Assembly (NCBI GenBank): GCA_963802415.1
Contig: CAWDIH010000002.1
Location: 427,543 to 491,542, forward strand
Length of the DNA stretch: 64,000 nt
Direction: 5' to 3'
DNA from: an uncultured Acidimicrobiia bacterium
GTDB lineage: Bacteria > Actinomycetota > Acidimicrobiia > Acidimicrobiales > JACDCH01
Every line of letters starts with the position of its first letter. The stretch's first letter is position 1. A program made the translations under genes and the position numbers. The notes under the pieces were generated by a model. The model searched no databases and was not told the origin of the DNA. It worked only from the letters and a program-made list of their open reading frames with translations. Below are positions 9,515-59,532 of this stretch, piece by piece.

Positions 9515-9628
9515 GCGCGCACATTGTCGACTCAGCCACCGAAACACGTGGCTGAGTCGACACAGACTTCGTCGCTGTGGCGTCTGTGTCGACACAGCCA
9601 CGGAATCGGTGGGTCAGCAGACACGGAC
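9515..9628 (+). repeat. palindromic hairpin repeat array, locus A (2 units)
   Basis: GCGCGCACATTGTCGACTCAGCCAC-cgaaacac-GTGGCTGAGTCGACACAGAC, then a 14-nt spacer, then GTCTGTGTCGACACAGCCAC...GACACGGAC. Lies in a convergent intergenic region. Confidence 0.9.
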
Positions 9629-9660
9629 GCGGACCGGCATCGGGGCGCGTCGCCGGGTCT

Positions 9661-9939
9661 CTACCCCCCGAGGCGCTCCTCGAGGTCGACCGTCACCCGT
9701 TGACCGGCTTCCTTGCCGATCGCGTGGCGCAGATCAGCCTTGATCGGCAGCTTGTGCCTGCCGTCGCCGAGCGCCATGAAGGAGCTTCGGAAGGGGTGGC
9801 CGTCTACACGACCTCGTACCTTGACCAGGCCTCGGGTGCCGAAGAACTCGGCCGAGCCGGCCATGACCACGTAGGTCCAGCCACCGGCGGCCGGACTCTT
9901 CTGCAGGGTGGCGGTGAACTGCTTGTTCAGCTTCTTCAT
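9661..9939 (-). CDS. DUF1905 (YdeI-like) domain protein
   Basis: 92-aa ORF from ATG 9939, with the complement of a GGAGG-type RBS (AGGAGG) at 9945-9950. Sequence GGWTYVVM...[17 protein letters not shown]. Confidence 0.7.
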
Positions 9940-10007
9940 TCGTGCCTCCTGTTGATGAACCGAACCGCGATCGCGATCGCGGCAATCGTTCACGGAGCGA
10001 CGGGGCG

Positions 10008-10802
10008 TCAGGGTCGCCCGGCTCGCGGCGCGCCGACCGGTTGGATCAGCACAACGCCGTCCGATGCACCGCCGCCGTTGTAGTGGTTGGCCACGATGTA
10101 CAGCAGGCGGCCGTCTTCGCCACCGAGCATGCACGCGAAGCAGCCGCGGTCGGCCTTGACCGTGTCGAGCACCTCGCCGCCTTCGGCGACGCGCGTGCAG
10201 CGCTGTCCGGGAACGCTGGCGTACCAGATCGCCCCGTCGGCGTCCGCGCAAATGCCGTCCGGAGCGGAACCCGGTCCGAGCTCGGCCCAGACACGGCGAT
10301 CAACCAACTCACCCGAGCCGGTGATCGTAAAAGCGGTCAGCCGGTCCGCGTGCGACTCGGCCAGCACGAGTGTGTCCTCACCGAGGACGACCATCCCGTT
10401 CGGAAACAACACATCGTCAGCGACCTGGCGGCTGCTCCCATCAGGCAGCACGACGGAGACGATCCCCGGCTTCGGCTCCTCCCATGGCATCGAGCCCGGC
10501 ATGTCCACCCACGCCCGCCCAGCGGCATCGACGACGATCTCATTGAAGGGCTGCCCGGCCGCGCCGTACGGCTCCAGGTCCGGACCTGCCACCACCCCAC
10601 CCGGCGTGGTGACGACAAGCCGGCCATCGGGAAGCCAATCGATCGAGAACGGCAGCCCCGCCACCCGCGCCACGACCTCGCGGTTCGAGTCGGCGTCAAA
10701 CACCAGCACCTCACCGGCCAGCCAGTCGCACATCCAGAACCGGCCGTCATGCCACCGCGGGGACTCGCCCATCTGAATCCCACTCGCGAACAGCTCAGTC
10801 AT
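10008..10802 (-). CDS. SMP-30/gluconolactonase/LRE family protein
   Basis: [16 protein letters not shown]...[12 protein letters not shown]...[13 protein letters not shown] are beta-propeller repeats of this family. Start at ATG 10802. Confidence 0.8.
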
Positions 10803-10836
10803 ATGTGAACAGACGCCCGTCGCCCCCAATTCTCAT

Positions 10837-10908
10837 CGGTCACCCACATCACTGGACCGAGAGCGATGCTGATGTGCATGACGGATGAGCCGACGGTGCC
10901 AGCGGGGC
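10837..10908 (+). other. conserved 5' leader element, copy 1 (shared with 63116-63184)
   Basis: About 70 nt, 64/70 identical by hand alignment to the reverse complement of 63116-63184. Contains the stem CACATCA/TGATGTG spanning the ATG codons of the methyltransferase. Confidence 0.6.
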
Positions 10909-11735
10909 CGGGGCTGGGCGATGACGTCAGCGGCGACGGCGTGTTTCACGCGGTGCGTGACGGCTACGAGGCGGTGTACGCGGCGCTGCCGCATGGGGCG
11001 ACCTTCAATCGAATCTGGCGCGAGACCGCCTACCGGGGTGAGTTCCCGATCGAGTTCGCCCACATCGGGTTCCTCACTCTCGCCGAAGCGCGCCGGATGC
11101 TCGATCTGCTTCGGCTACCGCCGGGGGCGGTACTTGTTGACGTCGCGTGCGGCGCGGGCGGCCCCGGGCTGTGGGCCGCGAACGAGACCGACGCGACGCT
11201 CATCGGTATCGATCCGGCAGACGCGGGACTGGCGCTGGCGCGTCAGCGGGCGGCAACCGTCGGACTGGCCGATCGGGCGCGCTTTCAGCGCGGCACGTTC
11301 GCACGGACCGGACTCACCGACGCGTCCGCGGATGCGGTGACGACGGTCGAGGCGTTCCAGTACGCGCCGGACAAGGACGCCGCGCTCCGCGAGTTCGCCC
11401 GCGTGCTCAAACCCGGTGGCCGCGTCGCAATCGTGTGCTTCGAAGTCGATTCCGCCAAGGTGGCCGGCGTTCCCGTTCTCGGCGTCGATCCGATCGAGGA
11501 CTACACGCCGCTGCTCACTGATGCGGGTTTCAGCATCGACGCGTACGAGCAGACGCCGGGTTGGGCGGAACGCGTGTATCCGACGTTCAGTGCGTTGGTC
11601 GACGCCAGCGACGCGCTCGCTGTCGAGATGGGCGAGCGGGCCGCTGCCGGCGCGCTATCCGAGGCGATGCTCACGGTCGCCATGAAGCCGTACCCGAGGC
11701 GAGTGTTGATCGTCGCTGCGCGCGCTCAGGGCTGA
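10866..11735 (+). CDS. class I SAM-dependent methyltransferase
   Basis: VLVDVACGAGGPG (motif I) and LKPGGRVAIV. Several in-frame ATGs at 10866, 10872 and 10878. Confidence 0.85.
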   Translation: MLMCMTDEPTVPAGPGLGDDVSGDGVFHAVRDGYEAVYAALPHGATFNRIWRETAYRGEFPIEFAHIGFLTLAEARRMLDLLRLPPGAVLVDVACGAGGPGLWAANETDATLIGIDPADAGLALARQRAATVGLADRARFQRGTFARTGLTDASADAVTTVEAFQYAPDKDAALREFARVLKPGGRVAIVCFEVDSAKVAGVPVLGVDPIEDYTPLLTDAGFSIDAYEQTPGWAERVYPTFSALVDASDALAVEMGERAAAGALSEAMLTVAMKPYPRRVLIVAARAQG

Positions 11736-12634: not shown

Positions 12635-12749
12635 GTTCGCCTCCTGTGGACTTTTCGGTGGTACTCGTCCACTATGGAGGAGTAACTCTCCAGCGGGAAG
12701 TAGGCACCTTGAAGTGCGTATCACACCGCGCGGTAGGAAGGAGCGGTCG

Positions 12750-14115: not shown

Positions 14116-14133
14116 GCCCTGCGGCGACTGACG

Positions 14134-14883: not shown

Positions 14884-14917
14884 TCCGAGGCGCCTGGCGA
14901 TTTCCATTGCCGGCGGA

Positions 14918-15818: not shown

Positions 15819-15830
15819 TCTCCGAACCTC

Positions 15831-24868: not shown

Positions 24869-24996
24869 CGCGCACATTGTCGACTCACCGACCGATTTCA
24901 GTGGCTGGGTCGACACAGACGCGTCCACGCCGCAGTCTGTGTCCGCTGAGCGACCGATCTGGTGGCTGAGTCGACACAGAAGTCTCTGCTGCGGAC
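24869..24996 (+). repeat. palindromic hairpin repeat array, locus B (2 units plus a degenerate tail)
   Basis: Starts CGCGCACATTGTCGACTCACCGAC, 23 nt after the restored soxR stop. The units are separated by a 14-nt spacer. Confidence 0.9.
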
Positions 24997-35059: not shown

Positions 35060-35230
35060 CGCGCACATTGTCGACTCACCAACCGATTTCGGTGGCTGAG
35101 TCGACACAGACACGTCTCCGGCCACGTCTGTGTCGGCTGAGCGACGGATCTGGTGGCTGAGTCGACACAGACGCGATGGCGGTGAGGTCCGTGTCGACTG
35201 ACCCACCCGTTCGGTGCCTGGGGTCTCGAT
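35060..35230 (+). repeat. palindromic hairpin repeat array, locus C (3 units, the last degenerate)
   Basis: Starts CGCGCACATTGTCGACTCACC. Two 14-nt spacers. Lies downstream of the MMPL gene and upstream of the HxlR gene. Confidence 0.9.
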
Positions 35231-45006: not shown

Positions 45007-45060
45007 TCTTGACGCGCCAGGTTGGATCGGCCGATGAGGCCGGGTGAGTCACAACGTCGT

Positions 45061-46263: not shown

Positions 46264-46306
46264 CCACCGGCTCGTCGCTGGAGGCCGTCGAACGGCGTCG
46301 CCCATG

Positions 46307-46330
46307 TTACTGTAGTGACCATTCTAGTAA
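46307..46330. promoter_or_regulatory. candidate operator upstream of the Rieske oxygenase genes
   Basis: TTACTGTAGTGACCATTCTAGTAA is an imperfect dyad. It shares CTGTAGTGAYC with the complement of the site at 49011-49026. Confidence 0.45.
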
Positions 46331-46372
46331 TGGGCGGGCTCCGAGCGGGCTCGATCGCAAAGGGGAACCAGC

Positions 46373-47752: not shown

Positions 47753-47765
47753 GAGGGAGGGGGAG

Positions 47766-48311: not shown

Positions 48312-48980
48312 TCAGCGGCGACTAGGCCGGCGACTCCGTTGGTGACTCTTCTTCGAACCGGCACGACGCTTGGCGCGGAGTTGCTCGGCGGTGGCGAGCA
48401 CCGCGGTGGCGAGCAGGTCGAAGGCGCCGCTGAGCTCGACCTCGCCGGTTTCCTGCGCCACGAACAACCCGTCGGCCAACGCCATCGTCAGCGTCACGAG
48501 GGATTCGATGTCGTCACCGTCGAGATCGGCGAACAGCGTGGCGTACAGCGTCCGCGCTCGGTCCGACGCGACGCGACGGACCTCGACGAACTTGCGCCGT
48601 GCGGTCGGTTCCTCGGGCCGCCGCTCGAGAATGAGCATCAGCCCCAGACGGAGGAAGTCGGAGAACTCCGAGATCGCCGCACCCGTCCGCTGCATCTGGA
48701 GGTGGAACTGCTGTTCCGCCGTGGCGCCTCGGGGAACGGAGGCCGGTGTGGTCAACGCCGCTTCCCATTGGTTGAAGCTGCGATCGATGACCGCGGCGAT
48801 CAGCTCGTCCTTGTCCTCGAAGTGCCAGTAGATCGAGCTCGCAGGCAGGCCCGACCGCTCACTGATGAGGTTGATGCTTGTGCCTTCGTAGCCCCGTTCG
48901 CCGGCGATTTCCGCAGCGGCGTCGAGGATGCGTTCACGCGACACCTCGCCGTTGGCACGCTTGCGTCTCGCCTCGGCCAC
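48312..48980 (-). CDS. TetR-family transcriptional regulator
   Basis: RERILDAAAEIAGERGYEGTSINLISERSGLPASSIYWHFEDKDEL. Its stop abuts the convergent beta-subunit stop (TGATCA). Confidence 0.85.
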   Translation of the reverse strand: MAEARRKRANGEVSRERILDAAAEIAGERGYEGTSINLISERSGLPASSIYWHFEDKDELIAAVIDRSFNQWEAALTTPASVPRGATAEQQFHLQMQRTGAAISEFSDFLRLGLMLILERRPEEPTARRKFVEVRRVASDRARTLYATLFADLDGDDIESLVTLTMALADGLFVAQETGEVELSGAFDLLATAVLATAEQLRAKRRAGSKKSHQRSRRPSRR

Positions 48981-49010
48981 GCATTGACGTTACCAGCCAC
49001 GCCGACTTAG

Positions 49011-49026
49011 TGTAGCGATCACTACA
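49011..49026. promoter_or_regulatory. candidate TetR operator
   Basis: TGTAGCGATCACTACA is a near-perfect 16-bp palindrome between tetR (48980) and the dioxygenase ATG (49046). Confidence 0.55.
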
Positions 49027-49045
49027 GAAATTTTGGAGCCCGCTC

Positions 49046-49897
49046 ATGATCCGCAACTTGGCGTACATCGGCTTCTGCTCGCCCCACGCGGAGGAGTGGC
49101 GCCGGTTCGGCCCCGAGGTTCTCGGCGCTCAGCTTGCCTCCGACGGTCCTGACGGCGCGGTGCGGTTGCGGGTCGACGACGCGACGTGGCGCATCACCAT
49201 CCACCCGAGCGACCAAGACGACCTCGCCTACCTGGGCTGGGAGGTCGACGACCTCGCCGCGACGATCGCGGCCATCGAAGCCACCGGTACCGCCGTGAAG
49301 GACGACGCGTTCGTCGACCCGTTCGGATTCCGGCACGAGCTCGTCACCGCCATCGAGCATGGTCCGCCGTTCGCGCCTGGACGCCCGATGTCCGGCTTCG
49401 TCACCGGCAAGCAGGGACTCGGCCACGTCGTGCTCATCGTCCCGGACCTCGACGCAGCCGAGGCTTTCTACACCGACGTGCTCGGGTTCCGGCCGTCCGA
49501 CTCCATCGAGTCCGGGCTGAGCTTGCGGTTCCTCCACTGCGCGGGCCACGCTGCGCGCCACCACACCGTCGCATTGGCATCGGTGCCGGGGATGGTCGGG
49601 ATCCATCACCTCATGCTCGAGGTGAAGACCCTCGACGATGTCGGTACCGCCCTCGACGTCGTCAACGCGCGGCACCTCCGGCTCGCGATGACGCTGGGCC
49701 GCCACACCAACGACCTGATGACGTCGTTCTACGTGCGCACGCCGTCCGGCTTCGAGATCGAGTACGGCACCGGTGGTCTCGTGGTCGACGATGACACGTG
49801 GGAGGTCGGCGTCCACGACGCGCAGAGCATCTGGGGTCACAAGCCACCCGCCGAGCCCATGTACCCGGGCATCCTTCATTCCTTCGCCGAAACGTGA
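49046..49897 (+). CDS. extradiol ring-cleavage dioxygenase (type I, VOC fold; BphC/HsaC-like)
   Basis: Two VOC modules: LAYIGF...WRITIHP and LGHVVLIVPD...FLHC...HHTVAL...HHLMLEV...FYVRTPSGFEIEYG. Confidence 0.8.
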   Translation: MIRNLAYIGFCSPHAEEWRRFGPEVLGAQLASDGPDGAVRLRVDDATWRITIHPSDQDDLAYLGWEVDDLAATIAAIEATGTAVKDDAFVDPFGFRHELVTAIEHGPPFAPGRPMSGFVTGKQGLGHVVLIVPDLDAAEAFYTDVLGFRPSDSIESGLSLRFLHCAGHAARHHTVALASVPGMVGIHHLMLEVKTLDDVGTALDVVNARHLRLAMTLGRHTNDLMTSFYVRTPSGFEIEYGTGGLVVDDDTWEVGVHDAQSIWGHKPPAEPMYPGILHSFAET

Positions 49898-49956
49898 GCG
49901 CGGCGCCGCGCGGAGGTCAGGTGCGCACGTGAACGCCGACGTCTAGGAGCATCAGC

Positions 49957-50805
49957 ATGCGTATCCATCGCAACGGTGGCGGCAACCACCACACGATCGA
50001 GTCGGTCCGCGCCGTCGCGCGCGAGGCGGTGGACGACGGTCTTGCGGGCCTCTGGCTCTCGCAGGTGTTCGCACTCGACAGCCTCACCGCGCTCGCCATC
50101 GTCGCCGCTGATGCGCCCGGCATCGAGCTCGGCACGTCGGTCGTGCCGATCTACGGGCGCCACCCGATCGTGCTCGCGATGCACACGCTGACCGTGCAGG
50201 AAGCGACGGGCGGTCGTCTCGTGCTGGGTGTCGGGCCGTCGCACCAGGTCGTCGTCGAGATGCTGTTCGGCGAGTCGTACGCCACGCCGTACTCGGACAC
50301 GGCTGCCTACCTCGAAGCGCTGGGGCCGCTGCTGCGGAACGAGGGCGCCGTACAGATCGACGCGCCGCCGCCACCGGTGCTCGTCGCCGCACTCGGACCG
50401 CGCATGCTGCGGCTCGCGGCAGCAAAGGCCGACGGCGTCGCGCTCTGGATGACGGGACCGAGGACGATCGCCGGGCGCGTTCAGCCGATTGTCGACGGCA
50501 AGCGCATCCTCGCCGGCATCAGCGTGTGCGTCACCGACGACGTCGACGCCGCACGAGCGCGAGCCGCTGCCGAACAGAAGGTCTACGGCACGTTGCCTGC
50601 GTACCAGGCGGTTCTAGCGGCCGAAGGCGTGGCCGCGCCGGAAGACCTGCTGATCGCCGGCACCGAAGAAGTCGTCGTCGACGGCATCGTCGCCTACGCG
50701 CGGGCGGGCGTCACCGACGTGCGCGTCTCGATCATCAGCGGGAACGACGACGAGCACGGCCGAACCCGCGCCTTGCTCGCCGCGCTGCAAATGGAGCACG
50801 CATGA
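49957..50805 (+). CDS. LLM-class F420/flavin-dependent oxidoreductase
   Basis: GLAGLWLSQVFALD...GTSVVPIYGRHP...GRLVLGVGPSH. Confidence 0.75.
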   Translation: MRIHRNGGGNHHTIESVRAVAREAVDDGLAGLWLSQVFALDSLTALAIVAADAPGIELGTSVVPIYGRHPIVLAMHTLTVQEATGGRLVLGVGPSHQVVVEMLFGESYATPYSDTAAYLEALGPLLRNEGAVQIDAPPPPVLVAALGPRMLRLAAAKADGVALWMTGPRTIAGRVQPIVDGKRILAGISVCVTDDVDAARARAAAEQKVYGTLPAYQAVLAAEGVAAPEDLLIAGTEEVVVDGIVAYARAGVTDVRVSIISGNDDEHGRTRALLAALQMEHA

Positions 50806-51953
50806 CCCTCGTCACGATCGCCCAGCGGCTCGCACCCGAACTCGCTGCCGCACGCGCCGAGGGCGAGGACCAGCGGCGTCTGCCCGATGCCGTCTGGAAG
50901 GCGATGCTCGAGTCGGGCATCCTGCGGTCGTTGCAGCCCGCACGGTGGGGCGGTGGCGAGGTCCACATCATCGAGTTCGTCGATGCTGTCATGGAGCTCT
51001 CGCGGGTGGACCCTTCTGCGGGATGGGTGGCCGGCGTGATCGGCGTGCACCCGTGGCAGCTCGCCCTCTTCGACGAGCGCGCCCAAGAGGCGATGTGGGC
51101 CGACGATCCGTCGACGATGCACAGCTCGTCGTACTACCCGACCGGGTCCGCCCAGAAGGTCGACGGCGGCTACCTCGTGTGGGGTCGGTGGTCATTCTCG
51201 TCCGGCTGCGACCACTGCTGCGGCGTCAACCTCGGCGCCGTCGTCCGTGCCGGCGACGTGCCCGATTTCCGCTCCTTCCTGCTCCTACCCCACCAGTACC
51301 GGATCGAGGACAACTGGCACGTCGCCGGCCTCAAGGCGACGGGCAGCAACGACATCGTCGTCGAGGAGACGTTCGTCCCCGACCACATGACGCAGTCGCA
51401 CCTCGACTACGCGATGGGCGCCAACCTGCCGGGTCAGGACCGCAACGAAGGCATCCTCTACCGGCTTCCGCAGTCGGTCGTGTTCAACATGGCGCTCGCG
51501 GCCTCGATCCTCGGCTCGGCTCGCGGGTTCATCGACGCCTGGATCGATCACTCGAAGGACCGAGTGCTGACCGGCGGCGGGCGAGTCGCGGACGAGCCAC
51601 TGAGCCAGCGTCGCCTCGCCGACGCGCTCTGGGACCTCGACGCCGCCATCACCGTGCTGCGCACGGACGCGCAGACGATGTGGGACATGGCCACCGAACG
51701 CGAGACGCCCAGCACGGGCCAGCGCGCTCGCCTGCGATGGAACATGAACCGCGGCTGCGAGCGCGTCGCCGACGCCTGCGTCGGGCTGTACCGGGCTGCA
51801 TCCGGCCGTACCGCGTTCGTCGACCACCCGCTCCACGCCCGGTTCCAGGACCTGCAGACCGGCCTTGGCCACGCCTTCCTCGTCCCCGACCCTCTTGCCA
51901 AGGCCGTCGGCGGTGAATTGCTCGGCACCACCAAACCCGAGTTCGTCCTCTGA
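50802..51953 (+). CDS. acyl-CoA-dehydrogenase-fold flavin-dependent monooxygenase (HsaA/group D oxygenase-like)
   Basis: ATGA overlap with the upstream stop. RRLPDAVWKAMLESGILRSLQPARWGGGE...WHVAGLKATGSNDIVV. Confidence 0.75.
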   Translation: MTLVTIAQRLAPELAAARAEGEDQRRLPDAVWKAMLESGILRSLQPARWGGGEVHIIEFVDAVMELSRVDPSAGWVAGVIGVHPWQLALFDERAQEAMWADDPSTMHSSSYYPTGSAQKVDGGYLVWGRWSFSSGCDHCCGVNLGAVVRAGDVPDFRSFLLLPHQYRIEDNWHVAGLKATGSNDIVVEETFVPDHMTQSHLDYAMGANLPGQDRNEGILYRLPQSVVFNMALAASILGSARGFIDAWIDHSKDRVLTGGGRVADEPLSQRRLADALWDLDAAITVLRTDAQTMWDMATERETPSTGQRARLRWNMNRGCERVADACVGLYRAASGRTAFVDHPLHARFQDLQTGLGHAFLVPDPLAKAVGGELLGTTKPEFVL

Positions 51954-51958
51954 CAACC

Positions 51959-52879
51959 GTGGGTCGTATCGACACGCACAGCCACGTCGTCCCGCCGGAC
52001 TACGCGCACTGGCTGCGCGGCAAGGGTGTCGCCGCCGGTGGGCTGCCGATCCCCGCGTGGGACCCGGAAGCCACGCTGTTCGTGATGGACCGCCACGACA
52101 TCGCGGCTGCCGTGCTGTCGGTGTCGACCCCCGGCGTTCACCTCGGCGACGGTGCGGACGCGCGCGCGATGGCGCGACACGTCAACGACTACGCCGCGCA
52201 GATGACGCACGACCACCCTGACCGGTTCGGGTTCTTCGCAACCCTTCCCTTGCCCGACGTCGACGGCGCGCTCACCGAGCTGGACCGAGCCTTCGACACG
52301 CTCGGCGCCGACGGCGTCGTCCTCCTCGCCAACCACCGAGGCATCTATCTCGGCGATCCGCGCTTCGATCCGATCTTCGACGAGCTGCAGCGCCGTGCCG
52401 CGGTCGTCTTCGTGCACCCGTCGGTGCTGCCGGGCCTCGACGCGATCGAAGGGATCCCGCCGTTCATCGCCGACTTCCTGCTCGATACGACACGAGCTGC
52501 GCTCAACCTCGGCCGCACCGGGACGCTCGACCGGAGCCCCGACGCGCGCTTCATCCTCTCCCACGCCGGCGGAATCGTCCCGTACGCCGCCTACCGCATC
52601 GCGCTCGCTGCGTCCGGCAATGGCGATGTCGCCGAGGGGCTCCGTCTGCTGCACCGGTACTACTTCGACATCGCGCTGTCGGGAACACCGACCGCACTGC
52701 CGAGCCTGCTCGCGTTCACGACCCCTGAACACATCACGTTCGGCAGCGACTGGCCGTACGCATCCGACCTCGTCGTCGCCGCCATGACGCGGATGTACGA
52801 GACGTTCGACCTCGACGTCGCCGCTCGACAGCAGATCGATCGCGGCACCGCCGCGACGTTGTTCCCGAGGTTCGCATGA
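51959..52879 (+). CDS. amidohydrolase-2 family protein (ACMSD/LigW-type decarboxylase or hydratase)
   Basis: IDTHSHVVPPDY, FVHP, ILSHAGG and FGSDWPY are metal-ligand motifs of the family. Confidence 0.8.
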   Translation: MGRIDTHSHVVPPDYAHWLRGKGVAAGGLPIPAWDPEATLFVMDRHDIAAAVLSVSTPGVHLGDGADARAMARHVNDYAAQMTHDHPDRFGFFATLPLPDVDGALTELDRAFDTLGADGVVLLANHRGIYLGDPRFDPIFDELQRRAAVVFVHPSVLPGLDAIEGIPPFIADFLLDTTRAALNLGRTGTLDRSPDARFILSHAGGIVPYAAYRIALAASGNGDVAEGLRLLHRYYFDIALSGTPTALPSLLAFTTPEHITFGSDWPYASDLVVAAMTRMYETFDLDVAARQQIDRGTAATLFPRFA

Positions 52880-53832
52880 TGGCTACGTATCGACATCGGT
52901 TCGGACCGCACAACCCAGCCGAGACCTACCTACCGCACACGTTCCCCGAGCGGCTCGTCGACCTCGGCGAGGTGCAGATGAACTACGCCACACTTGGCGA
53001 CGCGTCGAAGCCCGCGCTGCTGCTGATCCCGGCACAGACCGAGTCGTGGTGGGGCTACGAGCAATCGCTGCCGCTCCTTGCCCAACACTTCAACGCGTTT
53101 GCCGTCGATCTGCGCGGCCAAGGCCGGTCCACCCGGACACCGGGCCGTTACACGCTTGACAACATGGGCAACGACCTCGTCCGCTTCATCGACGTCGTCA
53201 TCGGCAGACCGACGTTCGTCAGTGGCCTCTCGTCCGGCGGCGTGCTGTCGGCGTGGCTGTCGGCGTACGCCAAGCCCGGGCAGGTCATCGCCGCCCACTA
53301 CGAGGACCCGCCGCTGTTCGCCTCCGAGGTGCAGCCGGCGACAGGCCAAGGAGTTCGTCAAGGCATCGGCGCGGTGTTTCATCTCTGGTCCACCCACCTC
53401 GGCGACCAGTGGAACATCGGCGACTGGGACGGTGTCGTAGCCGCCGCTCCCGACATCCTGCCCGCGTGGATGCAGGCGCTGTTCTCTCCACCGGCAGAAC
53501 CGCCGCAGAACCTCAAGGAGTACGACCCCGAGTGGGGGGGCGCGTTCTGGACCGGCTCGGTCGCGGCGTCCTGTGACCACGAGCGCATGCTGCGTTCGGT
53601 CAAGGTTCCGGTGCTGTTGACCCACCACTTCCGCCTTGTCGACGAGCCAACCGGGTTCCTCATGGGTGCGCTCTCGGACCTGCAAGCCAAGCGCGCGCTC
53701 GAGCTGCTGGGCGAGGCGGGTGTCGCCGTCGACTACCGGTCGTTCGAACACATGGGGCACTCGATGCACGGCCAAGACCCGCAGCTGTTCACCGACACGC
53801 TCGTCGACTGGGCGACCTCAGTGGAGCCGTAG
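52876..53832 (+). CDS. alpha/beta-fold hydrolase
   Basis: ATGA overlap with the upstream gene. LLIPAQTESWWGY...DLRGQGRS...FVSGLSSGG (GxSxG)...HMGHSMH. Confidence 0.8.
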   Translation: MMATYRHRFGPHNPAETYLPHTFPERLVDLGEVQMNYATLGDASKPALLLIPAQTESWWGYEQSLPLLAQHFNAFAVDLRGQGRSTRTPGRYTLDNMGNDLVRFIDVVIGRPTFVSGLSSGGVLSAWLSAYAKPGQVIAAHYEDPPLFASEVQPATGQGVRQGIGAVFHLWSTHLGDQWNIGDWDGVVAAAPDILPAWMQALFSPPAEPPQNLKEYDPEWGGAFWTGSVAASCDHERMLRSVKVPVLLTHHFRLVDEPTGFLMGALSDLQAKRALELLGEAGVAVDYRSFEHMGHSMHGQDPQLFTDTLVDWATSVEP

Positions 53833-53867
53833 CCGTGGTTGTCGCGTCATGCGACAGACTGCAGGCC

Positions 53868-55004
53868 ATGTCGATGATCACGCCCTTCGAGGTTCGGATC
53901 TCCGACCACGAGGCGAACGATCTGCGTGAACGTTTGGCACGGACGCGTTGGCCCGATGCAGAGACGGTGGACGACTGGACCCAAGGTGTCCCGCTCGCCT
54001 ACGTACGCGGGCTGTGCGACTACTGGGGTGAGGGCTACGACCTCGAGGCGGCGCAAGCGCGGTTCAACGCCTTTGCGCAGTACCGCACTGCGATCGACGG
54101 ACTTGATATCCACTTTCTCCACGTGCGGTCGCCGCACCCGGACGCGCTCGCCCTCGTGATCACGCACGGATGGCCCGGGTCGGTCGCCGAGTTCCACGAC
54201 GTGATCGGACCGCTGACCGATCCGGTGGCGCATGGTGGAGATGCGAGTGACGCGTTCCACGTGGTGTGCCCGTCGCTCCCCGGCTACGGGTGGAGCGGCA
54301 AACCCGCACGGCAGGGCTGGGGCATCGAACGGATCGCGGCGGCGTGGGCCGAGTTGATGGCGCGTCTTGGTTACACCGCATACGGCGCGCAAGGCGGTGA
54401 CTGGGGTGCGGGAGTCACCGTTGCGCTCGGCATGCTCGATCGCGAGCGCGTTGTCGGCATTCATCTCAACATGGTGATCGCGCTGCCGGACCCGGAAACC
54501 ATGGACGATCTCACGGATCAAGAGCGCGACGCGCTCGATGCGCTCGACTTCTACCAGAAGTGGGACTCGGGATACTCCAAGGAGCAGTCGACGCGTCCGC
54601 AGACGCTCGGATACGGCCTGGTCGATTCGCCGGCGGGACAGTGCGCCTGGATCGTCGAGAAGCTGTATGCGTGGTCGGACTGCGACGGCCATCCCGAGAA
54701 TGTGTTCGGTCGCGATCGAATGCTCGACAACGTGATGGCCTATTGGCTGCCCGGCACCGGTGCGTCTTCGGCTCGGCTGTACTGGGAGAGCTTCAACCGC
54801 ATGCGGATCGACAAGGTCGACATCCCGGTGGGGTGCACGCGATTCCCCAAGGAGATCTTCCGGCCGTCGCGCCGCTGGGCCGACAAGCAGTTCAGCGACA
54901 TCCGCTACTGGAACGAACCCGAACACGGCGGGCACTTCGCCGCGTTCGAACGTCCCGCGATCTACGTCGACGAAGTCCGCGCCGCCTTCCGGGCGATGCG
55001 GTAA
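53868..55004 (+). CDS. epoxide hydrolase (EHN N-terminal domain plus alpha/beta fold)
   Basis: ITPFEVRISDHEANDLRERLARTRWPD...HGWPGSVAEF...GGDWGA. Confidence 0.85.
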   Translation: MSMITPFEVRISDHEANDLRERLARTRWPDAETVDDWTQGVPLAYVRGLCDYWGEGYDLEAAQARFNAFAQYRTAIDGLDIHFLHVRSPHPDALALVITHGWPGSVAEFHDVIGPLTDPVAHGGDASDAFHVVCPSLPGYGWSGKPARQGWGIERIAAAWAELMARLGYTAYGAQGGDWGAGVTVALGMLDRERVVGIHLNMVIALPDPETMDDLTDQERDALDALDFYQKWDSGYSKEQSTRPQTLGYGLVDSPAGQCAWIVEKLYAWSDCDGHPENVFGRDRMLDNVMAYWLPGTGASSARLYWESFNRMRIDKVDIPVGCTRFPKEIFRPSRRWADKQFSDIRYWNEPEHGGHFAAFERPAIYVDEVRAAFRAMR

Positions 55005-55021
55005 CGGGCGGGCGCCCGCAT

Positions 55022-55261
55022 CGCGCACATTGTCGACTGAGCGACCGATTTCGGTGGCTGACCAGACACAGACGATGGATCGCTCGCGTTTGTGTCTGCT
55101 GAGCCACCGTTGTAGTGGCTGAAACGACACAGACCGGCGTGCGCGCGTCTGTGTCTGCTGAAGCACGGTTGCGGTGGCTGAAACGACACAGAGTTCGCGC
55201 GCGACGCGTCTGTGTCGCCTCAGCGACCTGTTTCCGTGGCTGAGGCGACAATGTGCGCGCG
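55022..55261 (+). repeat. palindromic hairpin repeat array, locus D (4 units, both termini present)
   Basis: The left end CGCGCACATTGTCGAC (55022-55037) and right end GCGACAATGTGCGCGCG (55245-55261) are inverted copies. Spacers are 14, 12 and 14 nt. Starts 18 nt after the stop at 55004. Confidence 0.9.
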
Positions 55262-55496
55262 TCGGAAGCGGTGGAACAGGGTCGTGAGCCTGCCCAACCA
55301 GTCGGTGGGATGGAGGTTCACTCGTCGATGCTCGCGGCCGCGAGAGCGGCAGCACCGCGCTCGGGCCTGTCCTGTATCCATTGCACACCATCTTCGGTCG
55401 CGCAGTTGCAGGACGGTTCGTACTCTCTTGCAGGCGACGCCGAGTTGTATACAGTCCGTGCGTGCTACGACCGCCTGAGCTCCCTGGCGATTAGGC

Positions 55497-55874
55497 GTGG
55501 CCTCAGTCGACACCGAGCACCGCCGGTTGTGCCACGCGCTGTTCGACGCACTCGAGCAAGGCGACATCGCCACCGTCGACGCGTGCTACGCCCCCGAGAT
55601 GACCATGTGGTTCAACGTCACGAATCAGGAGTCGACCCGAGAGCAGAACCTCGAGGCGCTGGTCAAAGGCAAGCGCCTCCATCGCCGCCGCACGTACAAC
55701 GACCGAATCATCAGCACGTTCGACGACGGGTTCATCGCGCAGTACACGTTGAACGTCGTCGCGCACGACGGTTCGACGGTGTCGCTGTCGGCGTGCCTCG
55801 TCGGTGAGGTCCACGATGGCAAGATCGTGAAGCTGTACGAGTATCTCGACTCGGGAAAGTTCGTGTCCCGCTGA
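55497..55874 (+). CDS. NTF2-like (SnoaL-like) protein, paralog 1 of 3
   Basis: LCHALFDALEQGDIATVDACYAPEMTMWFNV...RRRTYNDRIISTFDDGFIAQYTL...YEYLDSGKF. Confidence 0.75.
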   Translation: MASVDTEHRRLCHALFDALEQGDIATVDACYAPEMTMWFNVTNQESTREQNLEALVKGKRLHRRRTYNDRIISTFDDGFIAQYTLNVVAHDGSTVSLSACLVGEVHDGKIVKLYEYLDSGKFVSR

Positions 55875-56266
55875 TGGATGAGTACGAGATCCGGGAGCTG
55901 TGCAACGCCTTCTTCGACGCCTACCAGGACGGTCGTGTCGATGTGCTCGACCGCCTCTACGCCGACGACTGCATCGTGTGGCACAACGTCTTCGGACGGG
56001 AGACGACGCGCGACGAGAACTTGGCACGGTACGCCGACAGCTACAGCGGCCAGCGCAGGCGCACGTACAACGACCGCATCATCAACACCTTCCACGACGG
56101 GTTCGTGATCCAGTACACGCTGAACGGGGTGATGAACACGGGTCATAGGGGAGCGTTGTGGATCTGCATCGTCGCCACGTGCAAGGACGGGCGGATCACC
56201 CGCATCGACGAGTACATGGACTCGTCGAAGTTCGCCGAGTGGGCGGGTCGAGAGGGGGCGGAGTGA
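55874..56266 (+). CDS. NTF2-like (SnoaL-like) protein, paralog 2 of 3
   Basis: TGATG overlap with paralog 1. LCNAFFDAYQDGRVDVLDRLYADDCIVWHNV...RRRTYNDRIINTFHDGFVIQYTL. Confidence 0.75.
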   Translation: MDEYEIRELCNAFFDAYQDGRVDVLDRLYADDCIVWHNVFGRETTRDENLARYADSYSGQRRRTYNDRIINTFHDGFVIQYTLNGVMNTGHRGALWICIVATCKDGRITRIDEYMDSSKFAEWAGREGAE

Positions 56267-56652
56267 GGAAGGACTGGCAGACGTTCGAGCTCTGCGACCG
56301 GTTCTTCGACGCGATCGAGCAGAAAGACTACGAGCGGCTCGAATCGTGCTACGCGCCCGAGGCCGTGATCTGGCACAGCCACGACCGCCTCTACCAATCG
56401 CGCGCTGACAACCTGGCGATGTTGAAGAAGGGGATGGAGCTGCTCCCCAAGACGCGCTTCAAGGATCGCCGTGTGCGCGTCTTCGAGGGCGGCTTCGTGC
56501 AGCAGCACACGATCTACGTGACCCGGCCGGACGGGTTCGTCGGTCAAATGGAGGTCTGCTTCGTCGGCTACGTGCGCGACGGGATGATCAGTCGCGCCTA
56601 CGAGTACTTCGACACCGGCCAGATCGAGAAGTTCATCGGACCGCGGAGCTGA
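56263..56652 (+). CDS. NTF2-like (SnoaL-like) protein, paralog 3 of 3
   Basis: GTGA overlap with paralog 2. LCDRFFDAIEQKDYERLESCYAPEAVIWHS...YEYFDTGQI. Confidence 0.7.
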   Translation: MRKDWQTFELCDRFFDAIEQKDYERLESCYAPEAVIWHSHDRLYQSRADNLAMLKKGMELLPKTRFKDRRVRVFEGGFVQQHTIYVTRPDGFVGQMEVCFVGYVRDGMISRAYEYFDTGQIEKFIGPRS

Positions 56653-56654
56653 CG

Positions 56655-57821
56655 ATGGCCACGGAGCACACGGGTACGCCGGCCGAAGGTCTCGTCGAGC
56701 GTGTGCGCGCGGTCGTACCGATGATCGCGTCGACGTCGTTCGAGGCCGAGGCGCAGCGCCGGCCCCTCGACGAGGTCATTGACGCGCTCAAAGCGACCGG
56801 TGTGTTCCGCTCGTTCGTACCGGCTCGATACGGCGGCTACGAGATCGACATGTCGACGTACGTCGACATCGCGCTCGCCGTGGCGCACGCTGATCCGTCG
56901 ATGGGGTGGATCACCACCTTCTACATGGAGCACAACTGGCTGCTGACGATGTTCCCCGACGAGCTCCAGGACGAGATCTTCGGCGCGCATCCCTTCGTAC
57001 TCGCCCCCGGAACGGTCAACCCCAGCGGCCGCGCCGTTCGGGCGGACGATGGCACGTACTCACTCTCGGGTCACTGGCAGTTCGGCACCGGGATCTGCCA
57101 CGCGGACTTGGTGCTGCTGAGCGGCAAGTTCGAAGGCGACGACGCCGTACGGCTGTTCCTCGTCGAGCAGGACCAAGTGGAGGTGAAGGACACCTGGCAC
57201 GTCGACGGCATGGCGGCCACCGGCAGCCGCGACATCGTCGCCACGGACGTGTCCGTCCCACCGCAGCGGGTCTCGCTCATGCCGCCCCCGCACGCGCTCG
57301 CCCGGCCCGGAGACCCGTACCTCCTGCGCATCCCGATCCCGCCCTTCCTGTCGCTGACTGCGGCGCTGCCCGCGGTTGGCGCGGCGCAGCGAGCGCTCGA
57401 GCTCTTCGAGGAGCTGCTCTTCGGACGGATCATGTTCGGCACGAAACGGACCCAGAGTGCGCGGGTGCCGACGCAGGTCCGCCTCGCGAACCTCAGGGTC
57501 GAGGTCGATTTCGCCGAGACGCTCGTGCGTGACGTCGCAGCTCGCATGCAGGCGCATTGCGACGGAACGATCGACCTCGACTCGCTCGGCCAGCAGCACC
57601 TCCGTCTGGCGATCGCCCACATCGTGCGCCGCTGCCGTGACGTGGTGCGCGAGATCCTGGCGTCGAGCGGCGCGTCGGTGCACTACCTCGACCACGAGCT
57701 GCAGCGGCTCCACCGCGACGTCCACATGATCTGTGCCCATACGGTGTTCGACGTCGACCTCGTCGCCGAGGGGGTCGGCCGTGCCATCGTCGTCGCGCGC
57801 GAAACCAGGCGCGACGAGTGA
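56655..57821 (+). CDS. acyl-CoA-dehydrogenase-fold flavin-dependent monooxygenase (HsaA-like), second copy
   Basis: Starts 2 nt after the paralog 3 stop. RRPLDEVIDALKATGVFRSFVPARYGGYE...WHVDGMAATGSRDIVA. Confidence 0.75.
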   Translation: MATEHTGTPAEGLVERVRAVVPMIASTSFEAEAQRRPLDEVIDALKATGVFRSFVPARYGGYEIDMSTYVDIALAVAHADPSMGWITTFYMEHNWLLTMFPDELQDEIFGAHPFVLAPGTVNPSGRAVRADDGTYSLSGHWQFGTGICHADLVLLSGKFEGDDAVRLFLVEQDQVEVKDTWHVDGMAATGSRDIVATDVSVPPQRVSLMPPPHALARPGDPYLLRIPIPPFLSLTAALPAVGAAQRALELFEELLFGRIMFGTKRTQSARVPTQVRLANLRVEVDFAETLVRDVAARMQAHCDGTIDLDSLGQQHLRLAIAHIVRRCRDVVREILASSGASVHYLDHELQRLHRDVHMICAHTVFDVDLVAEGVGRAIVVARETRRDE

Positions 57822-57909
57822 AGCGTGCAGGTCAGTGTGGCAAACGACCCTTGCGGGACGGAGCGCCGGAGGCCATGGTTCCCGGAGCGAGTGGTGTGGA
57901 AGGACCGCG

Positions 57910-58107
57910 ATGAGGGTGCACGTGGACGAGACGAGGTGTGAGGGGCACGGCCGTTGCTACGACCTCGCGCCCGATCTGTTCGAGCCCGACGAGATCGGGA
58001 ACTCGCACGAGACGAATGACGGCATCGTTCCGGCGGGCCGCGAGGAGCTGGCCCGACGCGCGGTCCTGAACTGCCCCGAACGCGCGATCACGATCACGGA
58101 GGACTGA
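57910..58107 (+). CDS. small ferredoxin (P450-associated, CxxHxxC...CP type)
   Basis: 65 aa. VDETRCEGHGRCYDLAPDLF...NCPERAITI. Confidence 0.8.
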   Translation: MRVHVDETRCEGHGRCYDLAPDLFEPDEIGNSHETNDGIVPAGREELARRAVLNCPERAITITED

Positions 58108-58109
58108 GG

Positions 58110-59403
58110 ATGGCCGAACAAGACGCTCGACCGCAATCGGTCGACGAGCGGTTCGCGTCGCTCGCGGACGAGATAGACGAGGAGCCGATGGGCTTCAACA
58201 ACGAGGTCATCATCGGTCCGGTCTCGGATTTCGCAACCGACTTCGATCACACGGCCGACGAGTGGGCCGCCGACCCGTACCCGATCATCGAGGATCTCCG
58301 CGAGCGGTGCCCCATCGCACACACCGACCGCTATGGAGGCGGCTGGCTGCCGGTCGGTCACGACCAGGTGGCCGAGATCGCCTACGACACCGAGCACTTC
58401 ACGTCCCGGTCGGTGGTCATGGGCAACCACCGTCCGCCACGAGAGCTCGCGCCCGTCGGTATCGCGCCACCGATCTCGTCGGACCCGCCGTTCCACCACG
58501 GCGCCCGTCGGGTGCTGCTTCCCGCGTTCGCGCCGCCGCGCGATCACCAAGCTCGAACCGGGCACGCGCGACTACTGCGAGTCGTTGCTCGACGATCTCG
58601 AGGGACGGCCGGTCGTGGATGCCGCAGCTGACTTCGCGCAGCACATTCCGGTCCGGGTCATCGCCGACATGCTCGGGTTCCCGCCACAGGATGCAGAGCT
58701 GTTTCGTGGGTTCGTCCACAACACCCTCGAAGGGATCAACGAGCCGCTCGAGGTGCGGTTCGAGCGGATGCAGGGGTTGTTCGGCTACTTGAGCGCTCAG
58801 ATCGACGATCACCTCCGCACACCGCGTGACGACCTCACGTCCTTTCTCATCGATGCGGAGATGGACGGCGTGAAGCTCGACGCGTCCCACATCGTCGGAT
58901 CGATGGCCTTGCTGTTGCTGGCCGGCATCGACACCACCTGGAGCGCGATCGGCGCATCGATATGGCACCTCGCCAAGACGCCGGCGGACCGCAAACGGCT
59001 CGTGGCCGAGCCCGACCTGTTGCCCATCGCCATGGAGGAACTGCTGCGGGCCTACTCACCCGTGACGATGGCGCGGCTCGTCAAGGATGACATGGACTGG
59101 CACGGCTGCCCGATGAAGGCCGATGACTGGGTGCTGCTCTCCTTCCCTGCTGCGAACCGCGACCCGAGCGCCTTCGAAGACGCCGATCGCGTCATCATCG
59201 ATCGTGAGATCAATCGGCACTCGGCGTTCGGTCTCGGCGTGCACCGCTGCATCGGTTCGCATCTCGCGCGCATGGAGCTTCGTGTCGCGTTGGAGACATG
59301 GCTGGCTCGTTTCCCCTCGTTCTCGCTTGCCGACCCCGACGCAGTGACCTGGTCGCCGGGACAAGTGCGCGGTCCTCGACAGCTGCCCATCGCGGTGGGC
59401 TGA
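58110..59403 (+). pseudogene. cytochrome P450, frameshifted near 58535-58542
   Basis: The N-terminal part ends ...PPFHHGARRVLLPAFAPP. The +1 frame continues AITKLEPGTRDYCESLL...LLLAGIDTT...FGLGVHRCIGSHLA (heme Cys loop). Confidence 0.85.
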
Positions 59404-59419
59404 CCGCAGACGCCGGCGC

Positions 59420-59532
59420 CGCGCACATTGTCGACTCAGCCACGGAAACACGTCGCTGAGTCGACACAGAGTTTCGTCCTGGCGCGTCTGTGTCGACTCA
59501 GCCACCGGATCCGTGGGTCAGGCGACACAGAC
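59420..59532 (+). repeat. palindromic hairpin repeat array, locus E (2 units)
   Basis: Starts CGCGCACATTGTCGACTCAGCCAC, 17 nt after the P450 stop. One 14-nt spacer. Confidence 0.9.

Follow-up and report, generated by a model that had tools for sequence, protein, structure and literature searches.

The 64-kb window, which is the whole stretch of Acidimicrobiia DNA analyzed here, contains five intergenic loci (A to E) beside the genes given in Table 1. We confirmed that these loci are genuine copies of one small hairpin-forming DNA repeat family. The exact 16-mer CGCGCACATTGTCGAC opens each of them on the + strand, in agreement with the initial annotation, which had given all five a common left end pointing the same way. 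The right end of D carries a sixth copy, on the - strand and with one mismatch. These six matches compare with 0.29 expected, and none of 100 shuffled sequences reached six. The arm GTGGCTGAGTCGACACAGAC, with at most three mismatches allowed, matched 15 times against 0.02 expected, always inside the five loci, and a repeat finder returned a single 115-nt family whose exactly five copies are the five loci. A unit HMM trained on copies from other genomes, with the window sequence left out, recovered 13 hairpin units (two each in A, B and E, two plus a partial third in C, and four in D) and no unit outside the five loci over the 64 kb, which bears out the earlier count of two to four tandem units per locus. 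The boundaries of two loci had to be revised: B ends at 24981 and not at 24996, and the recognizable sequence of C stops near 35216, short of the 35230 first given. The distance of 17-23 nt from a + strand stop codon, initially assigned to three loci, holds for D (55004) and E (59403); at B, the TAG at 24846 is out of frame and the real stop, at 24834-24836, belongs to the MerR gene.

Table 1. Repeat elements and associated features in the window.
Feature	Position	Strand	Description
Locus A	9516..9628	+	113-nt half element: outer arm, two hairpins, inner-foot end; beta type, first loop CGAAACAC; neighbors convergent, AMP-binding (+, stop 9382) and DUF1905 (-, stop 9661)
Units of A	9521-9566, 9583-9627	+	unit HMM
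Outer arm foot and SalI core of A	9516..9531	+	exact match
Locus B	24869..24981	+	113-nt half element, alpha type, first loop CGATTTCA; MerR gene stop (24836) 32 nt upstream, convergent NmrA-like gene
Units of B	24874-24920, 24936-24980	+	unit HMM
Outer arm of B	24869..24884	+	exact match
Locus C	35060..35216	+	alpha-type half element plus decayed third unit; neighbors MMPL gene (-, stop 35311) and HxlR gene (-, start 34996)
Units of C	35065-35111, 35127-35172, partial 35188-35216	+	unit HMM
Outer arm of C	35060..35075	+	exact match
Locus D	55022..55259	+	complete 238-nt element, four hairpins; alpha end left, beta end right; outer arms form terminal inverted repeat; starts 17 nt past epoxide hydrolase stop (55004)
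Units of D	55027-55073, 55091-55134, 55148-55192, 55209-55254	+	unit HMM
Left outer arm of D	55022..55037	+	exact match
Right outer arm of D	55244..55259	-	CGCGCACATTGTCGcC on - strand, one mismatch
GDPD gene remnant	55250..55385	-	frameshifted, ~135 nt, 82% identical to L017 856-991
Locus E	59420..59532	+	113-nt half element, beta type, first loop GGAAACAC; in 139-nt gap; neighbors convergent, P450 (+, stop 59403) and HbpS-like (-, stop 59543)
Units of E	59425-59470, 59487-59532	+	unit HMM
Outer arm of E	59420..59435	+	exact match

The building block of the family is an arm of about 24 nt, a foot followed by GTCGACTSAGCCAC, whose orientation alternates from arm to arm; the gaps between arms alternate between 7-8 nt (the loop) and 12-14 nt (the spacer). 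The outer arm, with the foot CGCGCACATT adjoining the SalI core GTCGAC, occurs at element ends only, and the inner arm, with the foot GTCTGT followed by GTCGAC, occupies the interior. A recount gave spacers of 14 nt in seven of eight cases, as first reported, the remaining one being a 12-nt spacer in D, and the period estimated at about 61 nt was measured as 61 nt (59 nt within D). The two loop subfamilies, GAAACAC in A and E and GATTTCR in B, C and D, were likewise recovered. The proposed 20-bp stem stands as an idealized consensus and not as a description of real units, which are about 75-80% paired and carry recurrent subfamily-specific mismatches. Elements fall into discrete size classes of 113, 175-178 and 238-240 nt (n = 40 elements). 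In the complete form an alpha half is joined to an inverted beta half, and the outer arms become terminal inverted repeats of 16-24 nt; among 17 complete elements, 15 combine an alpha end with a beta end. One-ended forms of 113 nt are as frequent as complete elements. The initial annotation had overlooked that D terminates in the common left end as its reverse complement; in the predicted fold this right outer arm pairs with 55022-55035 and closes the entire structure. The same loop and spacer variants recur in copies from unrelated loci and from different genomes. Therefore the composites appear to be copied whole, in keeping with the earlier view of the entire composite as the repeat.

Copies of the repeat are dispersed across at least three genomes. 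Confinement to the window, which had been considered at the outset, does not hold: two other Acidimicrobiia MAGs contain 29 true loci, and soil metagenome contigs gave about nine further copies, among them forms with one, two and three hairpins. The inner feet are GTCTGT/ACAGAC in 18 of 18 cases in the window and 97 of 105 in MFD05841, and TTCTGG/CCAGAA in 19 of 22 in SMAG_U5409; the outer foot is identical in all three. The inner-foot switch between lineages therefore points to lineage-specific amplification or homogenization.

The copies are old and vertically inherited. They are 73% identical on average with a maximum of 89%, and identity within a genome equals that between genomes (0.73-0.74); therefore there is no sign of recent transposition. 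A comparison of orthologous regions, as the initial annotation had suggested, found E retained in strains 96-98% identical, unchanged in close strains, and missing at the same convergent HbpS-like/P450 pair in the relative L053, where the empty site has a small hairpin of its own and no clean excision or insertion boundary. In the window, the GDPD remnant is a neighbor that abuts the beta end of D and lies outside the element. The L017 gene, assigned to Pfam GDPD (1e-17), terminates 14 nt away from the corresponding end of an element with four hairpins. The same gene beside the beta end in both places therefore indicates an old shared junction and vertical descent; the remnant beside D marks a rearrangement as well. 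Tandem duplication of unit plus spacer was seen at L007, L014, L017 and L024.

Predicted folds are very stable: the energy of D is -139 kcal/mol (z -9.6), and those of A, B, C and E lie between -56 and -80 kcal/mol (z -4.5 to -6.4). In A and B, the minimum-energy fold includes the pairing across the spacer that had been proposed earlier. Complementarity of the hairpin arms is not restored after mutation: base-pair covariation is absent, with 74.9% of cells paired against 79.1% with shuffled partners and a score of 0.059 against 0.101 in shuffles. Between G·U and A·C mismatches there was no bias with transcription direction (28 versus 27). With neither compensatory change nor a strand-specific G·U signal, a role as RNA structure is therefore without sequence support. 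Column conservation is 0.98 in the outer foot, 0.88-0.92 in the inner feet and 0.84-0.90 in the cores, compared with 0.58-0.66 in the loops and 0.47 in the spacers. Such arms in copies averaging 73% identity therefore indicate purifying selection on the sequence and not on the pairing.

The copies lie almost only downstream of genes. By the predictions of a crude GC3-based gene caller, run on frameshift-containing DNA from long-read MAGs, 16 of 33 copies lie in convergent, 16 in tandem and one in divergent gaps, against a background of 37, 147 and 54, respectively, so that convergent gaps are enriched (background 15.5%, p = 9e-6) and divergent gaps depleted (p = 0.002). The outer end lies 16-100 nt past stop codons, and in solo halves it faces the stop codon in 17 of 18 cases at a median of about 43 nt, locus C being the sole exception. 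The 30 nt after a stop codon that is followed by an element have C 0.48 and G 0.29, compared with C 0.34 and G 0.35 in controls. Complete elements have no preferred orientation relative to transcription. U-tract terminators are not in excess (6 versus 6.0 in shuffles) and none occurs at the loci; this shuffle-level count therefore implies a need for another 3' signal.

We believe, with a probability of about 0.6, that the five loci represent one lineage-restricted modular palindromic extragenic repeat family of the REP/BIME and BOX class in a soil Acidimicrobiia clade. The family itself is undescribed, the kind of element is familiar and the biology is of no new kind. The search of Rfam advised in the initial annotation gave no match even at E<=5, phage and plasmid collections gave none, and in searchable papers the motif strings turned up only as short, unrelated sequences in work that does not concern repeats, for example cloning and CRISPR studies. 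The first label, REP/BIME-like of an unrecognized family, holds for the class (dispersed, extragenic, palindromic, clustered), but the tags that define the described REP superfamilies, an unpaired GTAG or CGTC with stems of 5-13 bp, are absent. No mobilizing gene was found: none of the loci has an ORF bracketed by outer arms, and about 370 kb (the window plus related loci) showed no similarity to Y1/RAYT queries.

The indirect evidence favors a duplicative element, either tolerated at 3' ends or of use there. A trans-acting enzyme would recognize the outer arm and copy the whole composite in one piece, without creating a duplication. An HUH/RAYT-like single-strand transposase may do this, or copying might instead proceed by recombination. 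Arrays would grow longer by tandem duplication of unit and spacer, and copies would persist only where insertion is harmless, namely in 3' intergenic DNA. The role of the hairpins at 3' ends is one that we can only infer: transcription from either side would yield a very stable hairpin stack with no U tract, which might block 3' exonucleases or, with the C-rich leader, aid factor-dependent termination.

An alternative is a host cis-element that is not mobile, a sequence-specific, factor-dependent and bidirectional transcript-end signal whose arms are read as RNA or DNA by a dedicated protein. The purifying selection on the arms, the strong enrichment between convergent genes, the position of the outer end past stop codons, the C-rich and G-poor leader and a genome without U-tract terminators all agree with such a signal. 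A mechanism of this kind has been proposed for TRIT of Mycobacterium tuberculosis, which provides a precedent as a palindromic, bidirectional, conserved-sequence hairpin at actinobacterial gene ends (PMC3152330). However, the terminal-inverted-repeat architecture, the quantised multi-hairpin sizes, an alpha/beta polarity indifferent to transcription direction and the lineage-specific switch of both feet would be left unexplained. There is no strand-specific G·U signal, and L053 does without the element at the same gene pair. We consider this signal unlikely; it and the dispersed-repeat reading are not mutually exclusive.

It is quite improbable that the repeats are classical MITEs, that is, internally deleted insertion-sequence derivatives, mobile as double-stranded DNA through a DDE transposase that binds the terminal inverted repeats. 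Those repeats in complete copies would suit such an origin, as would a small, non-coding, highly base-paired and dispersed element, but 25 complete copies showed no direct repeats of 2-9 nt at any offset of 0-13 nt from their ends, one-ended forms match complete ones in frequency, the copies are old, and no longer element with the same ends appeared in any collection searched. Arrayed sites at which a chromosomal protein (such as a nucleoid-associated protein, gyrase or recombinase) binds double-stranded or cruciform DNA, as reported for some E. coli BIMEs, would account for constraint on sequence without constraint on pairing, for the regular 61-nt spacing and for the symmetry relative to transcription. 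We regard this reading as very improbable, as no candidate protein is known, the spacers, which carry the IHF sites in BIMEs, are unconserved here and the 3'-end bias is not predicted. A structured non-coding RNA gene or riboregulator is hardly credible despite the stable predicted folds, given the blank Rfam search, covariation below the shuffled level, the use of both orientations, variable loops and spacers, and no promoter-like site found in 45000-64000.

Among known systems, the REP/BIME clusters of E. coli and other Proteobacteria resemble the family in their extragenic palindromes of alternating orientation with two alternating linker lengths, copy-number change by tandem duplication, location at 3' ends and in convergent-gene gaps, lack of target-site duplication, and imperfect palindromes whose recurrent mismatches confer polarity. 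They differ in that a single arm here is not palindromic, two arms making a hairpin with a stem of about 20 bp instead of 5-13 bp; in addition, the unpaired GTAG or CGTC tag is absent, the cluster is delimited by a distinct terminal arm, the searched loci gave no RAYT, and the host is an actinobacterial lineage. REPIN-RAYT systems (PMC3116915, PMC3337134) are similar in that the complete element is an inverted doublet, here of two 113-nt halves that also occur solo, and in long-lived vertical inheritance with no bursts and no target-site duplication. Their defining repeat-flanked partner RAYT gene was not found in the window and related loci, and the halves here are themselves two-hairpin composites.

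BOX of Streptococcus pneumoniae has the structure boxA-(boxB)n-boxC (PMC3049150). It is likewise a modular, non-coding, highly base-paired, dispersed intergenic composite with mutually complementary terminal modules, a variable number of tandem internal modules and an uncertain mobilizer. There is no sequence similarity, BOX is AT-rich with termini resembling an IS (ISSpn2), and it uses three different module sequences whereas one arm is reused both ways here. TRIT of Mycobacterium tuberculosis (PMC3152330) shares a sequence-conserved, bidirectional palindromic hairpin without a U tract, multicopy at gene termini of a high-GC actinobacterium; compared by description and without an Rfam match, it differs as a single hairpin overlapping the stop codon (around -8), restricted to Mycobacterium, with no multi-hairpin composite and no terminal inverted repeats. 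For CGTC-tagged REPs, which have not been reported from Actinobacteria (PMC3733652), no dedicated transposase is known either. Their CGTC is an unpaired tag on a hairpin whose stem has 8-9 bp and whose loop has 4-5 nt, with a CCA tail, whereas the CGTC string ahead of many inner arms here (gCGTCTGTGTCGAC) lies within the paired foot.

The five repeat loci of the window belong to a dispersed, non-coding family of modular palindromic elements, which has terminal inverted repeats, conserved arms and old copies and shows no target duplication. The loci reported in the initial annotation are real, as a repeat finder returned a single 115-nt family with exactly these five copies. The 16-mer CGCGCACATTGTCGAC matches the + strand exactly at 9516, 24869, 35060, 55022 and 59420 and the - strand at 55244-55259 with one mismatch, six matches in the window against 0.29 expected. 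For the 20-nt arm GTGGCTGAGTCGACACAGAC, 15 matches with up to three mismatches were found against 0.02 expected, 15/15 within the five loci. A profile HMM of the unit (one hairpin, consisting of two arms and a loop), trained only on copies from other genomes, recognised 13 units, all of them intergenic, and had no match elsewhere in the 64 kb outside the five loci. Two coordinates required correction: locus B ends at 24981 instead of 24996, and the stop codon before it, previously placed at 24846, belongs to the MerR gene and lies at 24836. The earlier hand count of the spacers was accurate (14 nt in 7/8, 12 nt in 1/8).

Repeat loci of the window, with units recognised by the profile HMM, form of the element and flanking genes (Pfam assignments, strand in brackets)
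Locus	Coordinates	Units	Form	Left gene	Right gene	Gene arrangement
A	9516-9628	2	113 nt, solo beta half	AMP-binding (+)	DUF1905 (-)	convergent
B	24869-24981	2	113 nt, solo alpha half	MerR (+)	NmrA-like (-)	convergent
C	35060-35216	2 and a partial third	113 nt with decayed third unit, solo alpha half	HxlR (-), start facing element	MMPL (-), stop facing element	tandem
D	55022-55259	4	238 nt, alpha half plus inverted beta half	epoxide hydrolase (+)	SnoaL-like (+)	tandem
E	59420-59532	2	113 nt, solo beta half	P450 (+)	HbpS-like (-)	convergent

An arm grammar was derived from about 40 elements in the window and the related loci. The building block is one arm of ~24 nt, made up of a foot and GTCGACTSAGCCAC, and its orientation alternates along the element. 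A loop of 7-8 nt leads from a (-) arm to the following (+) arm, and a spacer of 12-14 nt from a (+) arm to the next (-) arm. The outer (O) arm, with the foot CGCGCACATT, is confined to the element ends, and the inner arm, with the foot GTCTGT (reverse ACAGAC), occupies internal positions. Element sizes are quantised. The 113-nt form has two hairpins and one outer end; the 175-178-nt and 238-240-nt forms have three and four hairpins, respectively, and outer arms at both ends. Single hairpins flanked by two outer arms also exist in soil metagenome contigs, and the architectures seen have O arms outside with 0-3 inner hairpins between. Locus D, of the four-hairpin form, carries outer arms at both ends and is therefore a complete element with terminal inverted repeats as its boundaries; 24 other complete copies likewise have both outer arms. 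The 238-nt form consists of two 113-nt halves that are inverted relative to each other. Read inward from the outer arm, the loop is either the T-rich GATTTCG (alpha) or the A-rich GAAACA (beta). One alpha and one beta end were present in 15/17 complete elements, which gives the element a polarity, with all loops T-rich on one strand. The two loop subfamilies distinguished in the initial annotation thus correspond to the two halves of the complete element.

Folded as single strands, loci A, B, C and E gave energies of -56 to -80 kcal/mol (z -4.5 to -6.4 relative to shuffles) and locus D gave -139 kcal/mol (z -9.6). The terminal repeats of D pair in the predicted fold and close the entire structure, and the alternative pairing across the spacer that had been anticipated from the sequence is used in the minimum-energy folds of A and B.

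The window is absent from the GTDB representative set. Related loci were collected with the exact outer-arm pattern, and the window copies were left out of this discovery. The true loci numbered 29 in MFD05841.bin.2.7 and SMAG_U5409, both Acidimicrobiia MAGs, and contigs from soil metagenomes contributed about 9 further copies, so the family is not confined to the window, a possibility the initial annotation had raised. About 114 units lie in about 370 kb of related loci. JGI soil metagenome strains at 96-98% identity contain D and E unchanged; samples with such near-identical strains include 3300082023 to 3300082029. Four collected loci (L015, L041, L042 and L045) proved to be chance matches and not family copies. 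The 50 matches to the 16-mer and the one match to the junction pattern in viral contigs are also attributed to chance, as none contains a unit according to the HMM. The family had no match in phage and plasmid records or in the searchable literature, and Rfam returned nothing at the loci at gathering thresholds or at E<=5, in keeping with its earlier description as not recognised. As far as these tools can tell, the family is undescribed, in a host clade that has received little study.

The modules differ in column conservation, which is 0.98 for the outer foot (in part an ascertainment effect, because the relatives were found by the exact outer-arm pattern), 0.84-0.90 for the cores, 0.88-0.92 for the inner feet, 0.58-0.66 for the loops and 0.47 for the spacers. 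Mean identity among the 113-nt halves is 0.73-0.74, whether copies of one genome or of different genomes are compared, and no pair exceeds 0.89. These values indicate that the copies are old, that a recent burst is absent and that the subfamilies arose before the window genome and MFD05841 diverged. In the window and MFD05841 the inner feet read GTCTGT/ACAGAC, and in SMAG_U5409 they are the complementary pair TTCTGG/CCAGAA, with the outer foot constant across all three. Such a switch requires lineage-specific amplification or homogenisation.

The family shows a strong bias to DNA downstream of genes. Genes over all loci were called with a crude GC3-based likelihood script, and the related-locus DNA is from long-read MAGs with frameshifts. 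On these calls, intergenic regions with an element comprise 16 convergent, 16 tandem and 1 divergent, against 37, 147 and 54 for regions without one; convergent regions are enriched (p = 9e-6) and divergent regions depleted (p = 0.002). The outer arm points towards a stop codon in 17/18 solo halves, at a median distance of about 43 nt; the preference of the outer over the inner end is a trend that did not reach significance (Fisher p = 0.28). The sequence immediately beyond the outer arm is rich in C on the strand reading into the element, with 60-73% C at positions -12 to -6, and the opposite flank of complete elements is correspondingly G-rich. The 30 nt after a stop codon have C 0.48 and G 0.29 when an element follows, and C 0.34 and G 0.35 otherwise. 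A variable C/T-rich tract (CCCCCCYT) precedes CGCGCACATT in the flanks of L001-L044 (for example L003, L008, L012 and L016) and is weaker in the window, and G-rich runs, in some cases three or four, occur on the far side of complete elements. The tract may belong to the element itself, reflect a preference for certain targets, or represent a rut-like or G4-like feature. Terminator-like sites with a U tract numbered 6 in 19 kb (6.0 in shuffles), with none at D or E. The locus flanks are GC-rich on direct reading, and an intrinsic (L-shaped) terminator was rejected, as no U tract follows a GC-rich hairpin at the loci.

Junctions were compared where neighbouring genes are shared. A frameshifted GDPD remnant of ~135 nt (55250-55385, -) directly adjoins the right outer arm, the beta end, of D. 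In L017 (730-1650), the GDPD gene is intact and its stop lies 14 nt away from the beta end of an element with four hairpins in the same orientation. This common neighbour at the beta end marks an old junction and shows long vertical persistence. The left flanks, an epoxide hydrolase in the window and a signal-peptidase-like gene in L017, are unrelated, which places the element at a rearrangement breakpoint. The convergent HbpS-like/P450 pair of locus E also exists in a relative, L053, at 84% protein identity, where the two genes are separated by a 51-nt spacer that lacks the element; like the switch of the inner feet, this absence shows turnover of the family. That spacer (2924-2974) holds ~17 nt duplicated from the 3' end of the P450 gene and a 35-nt hairpin, CTGACCGGGCCCGC-GATTCGA-GCGGTGCCTGGTCAG. 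The unit HMM did not recognise this hairpin, which may be a relic, or else an unrelated structure that resembles a terminator. Three further candidate empty sites (L051, L052 and L054) were uninformative, with synteny broken at loci E and D. In L025, a DUF559/REase-like gene (4413-5378, -) lies between two inverted solo halves (4336-4447 and 5456-5568), and its ORF extends into the first half; this may be a coincidence, or a gene inserted mid-way into a complete element. Inserts of 54-72 nt occupy the central position of complete elements in L002 and L006.

The earlier label "REP/BIME-like" holds for the arrangement, the 3' location and the imperfect palindromes, and fails for the defining tag and stem features of the GTAG/CGTC superfamilies. 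As in REP and BIME sequences, the units are short imperfect palindromes, extragenic and in many copies (13 in 64 kb), located 3' of genes, with arms alternating -/+ and two linker classes of 7-8 and 12-14 nt. In contrast, the GTAG/CGTC superfamilies have an unpaired conserved tetranucleotide at the foot and a stem of 5-13 bp, whereas the present family has no GTAG, carries CGTC inside the paired foot and has a consensus stem of about 20 bp; stem length, loop length and tag position rule out membership in either. CRISPR arrays combine cas genes with direct repeats of 23-47 nt and spacers of 21-72 nt that are each unique. They were excluded here by the inverted arms, by spacers of 12-14 nt that are partly common to several loci, by the maximum of 4 units per array and by the checked neighbours, which are ordinary metabolic and regulatory genes. 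The family resembles BOX elements, in which terminal modules enclose a variable number of tandem internal modules (PMC3049150). Homology to boxA, boxB or boxC is very unlikely, given a GC content of 67% against about 40% and a different host. The doublet-of-halves design and slow vertical persistence resemble REPINs. The RAYT partner that defines REPIN-RAYT systems was not found here: tblastn of the window and loci, about 370 kb, with three Y1/RAYT queries gave nothing below E = 0.2, a weak negative as the queries were approximate. A Pfam scan of 17 proteins contained no transposase. The context recalls TRIT, a palindromic, sequence-conserved and bidirectional element at gene ends in a high-GC actinobacterium, for which sequence-specific hairpin-plus-factor termination was once suggested (PMC3152330). 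Resemblances of the outer foot to the XerC arm of dif, of the beta loop to parS and of the arm to the Tn3 inverted repeat, all judged by eye, are weak or coincidental.

We favour, with a probability of about 0.6, a combined account in which a dispersed repeat is spread by a copying agent and may have a role in RNA at the 3' end. Assignment of the family to the REP/BIME/BOX class is very probable; the enzyme and the RNA role are far less certain. The loop types and spacer variants travel together, which suggests that the composite is duplicated as one unit. The copying agent would read the outer arm and leave no duplication, as might be expected of an HUH/RAYT-like single-strand transposase or of a recombination-based process. 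Arrays would lengthen through tandem duplication of a unit with its spacer, as seen in L007, L014, L017 and L024, and copies would survive only at harmless sites. As the copies occupy 3' untranslated DNA and many of them separate convergent genes, they would be transcribed, and the transcripts would fold into very stable hairpin stacks that lack U tracts. Such stacks might block 3' exonucleases or, with the C-rich leader, help factor-dependent termination. Either role is plausible, but the sequence statistics gave no support for it.

The main rival is a bidirectional signal for 3' ends that is under host selection and read by a factor, as has been proposed for TRIT. Such a signal accounts well for arm conservation but leaves the architecture unexplained, and we consider it unlikely. 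The other alternatives fit worse. A classical DDE MITE would have terminal inverted repeats, as do D and the 24 other complete copies in their outer arms. However, no excess of direct repeats was found at k = 2-9 and offsets of 0-13 nt around the 25 complete copies, so the family is not a MITE by the duplication criterion. No ORF-bearing version that could be a parent insertion sequence occurred among the 29 genome and about 9 metagenome loci, and there was no true viral match. We regard this origin as highly improbable. A chromosomal protein-binding array likewise has a very low probability.

The arms do not behave as the stem of a structured RNA. When a 20-pair hairpin was imposed on 47 units, 74.9% of the cells were paired, against 79.1 +/- 0.8% with partners shuffled among units, and the covariation score was 0.059 against 0.101 in shuffles. 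An independent count over 104 distinct units gave 1181 paired cells against 1203 +/- 8, and compensatory evolution of hairpin pairs was seen in neither count. In 64 units the two arms carry the same central base of CTSAG (G·G or C·C), against 37 units in which the two bases are complementary. Asymmetric variants that recur, for instance GTCTGC opposite GTCGAC, are characteristic of subfamilies. As compensatory change is absent, the hairpin belongs to the consensus, one arm in both orientations, and is not maintained by individual copies. The ~20-bp stem described previously therefore stands as a consensus and does not apply to each copy. Strand-specific RNA selection was rejected, because G·U and A·C mismatches number 28 and 27 relative to the direction of transcription and the sense-strand loops are balanced in composition; complete elements are also mixed in orientation relative to transcription. 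Given the lack of compensatory pairs and the empty Rfam search, a structured RNA gene is almost certainly not the explanation.

A more far-reaching reading, which we regard as quite unlikely, is that the arms are the recognition site of a dedicated protein. The family would then be the first actinobacterial REPIN-like replicator with a non-canonical enzyme, or a hairpin-plus-factor termination system, sequence-specific and suited to high-GC genomes that lack U-tract terminators. In that case, the C-rich leader, the mismatched CTSAG centre and the 98%-conserved outer foot would be functional recognition parts.

Much work has been done on small, dispersed palindromic repeats in Proteobacteria and Firmicutes. 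To our knowledge, they have hardly been described in Acidimicrobiia, an abundant and largely uncultured lineage of soil and water. The kind of element is familiar; the new part is this family and its host. It provides a clear marker with which to bin contigs, type strains and detect rearrangement breakpoints, and the shadow ORFs that run through the repeats make it a nuisance for assembly and gene calling. With strong arm conservation lacking pairing covariation, and strong convergent enrichment in a genome that lacks U-tract terminators, the family offers a test case for 3'-end formation in high-GC Actinobacteria, and also for the persistence of long-lived, vertically inherited repeats with no obvious transposase.

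Several features near the loci were also observed. The P450 gene upstream of E (58110-59403, +) has a 1-nt insertion near 58535 relative to L046, a strain of 99.1% identity; the protein is intact in L046 (430 aa) and split over two frames in the window, either as a pseudogene or through an assembly error. After D, three tandem SnoaL/DUF4440 (ketosteroid-isomerase-like) paralogues at 55497-56652 (+) account for a 125-nt direct repeat, and the same trio follows a GntR gene in L054, with neither an intergenic gap nor an element. Finally, two genes that are otherwise unrelated are similar over ~75 nt at their 5' ends, at 10840-10910 (+) and 63116-63185 (-), with a 38-nt core that is 97% identical; this stretch could represent a shared leader, a shared promoter or a small recent duplication.
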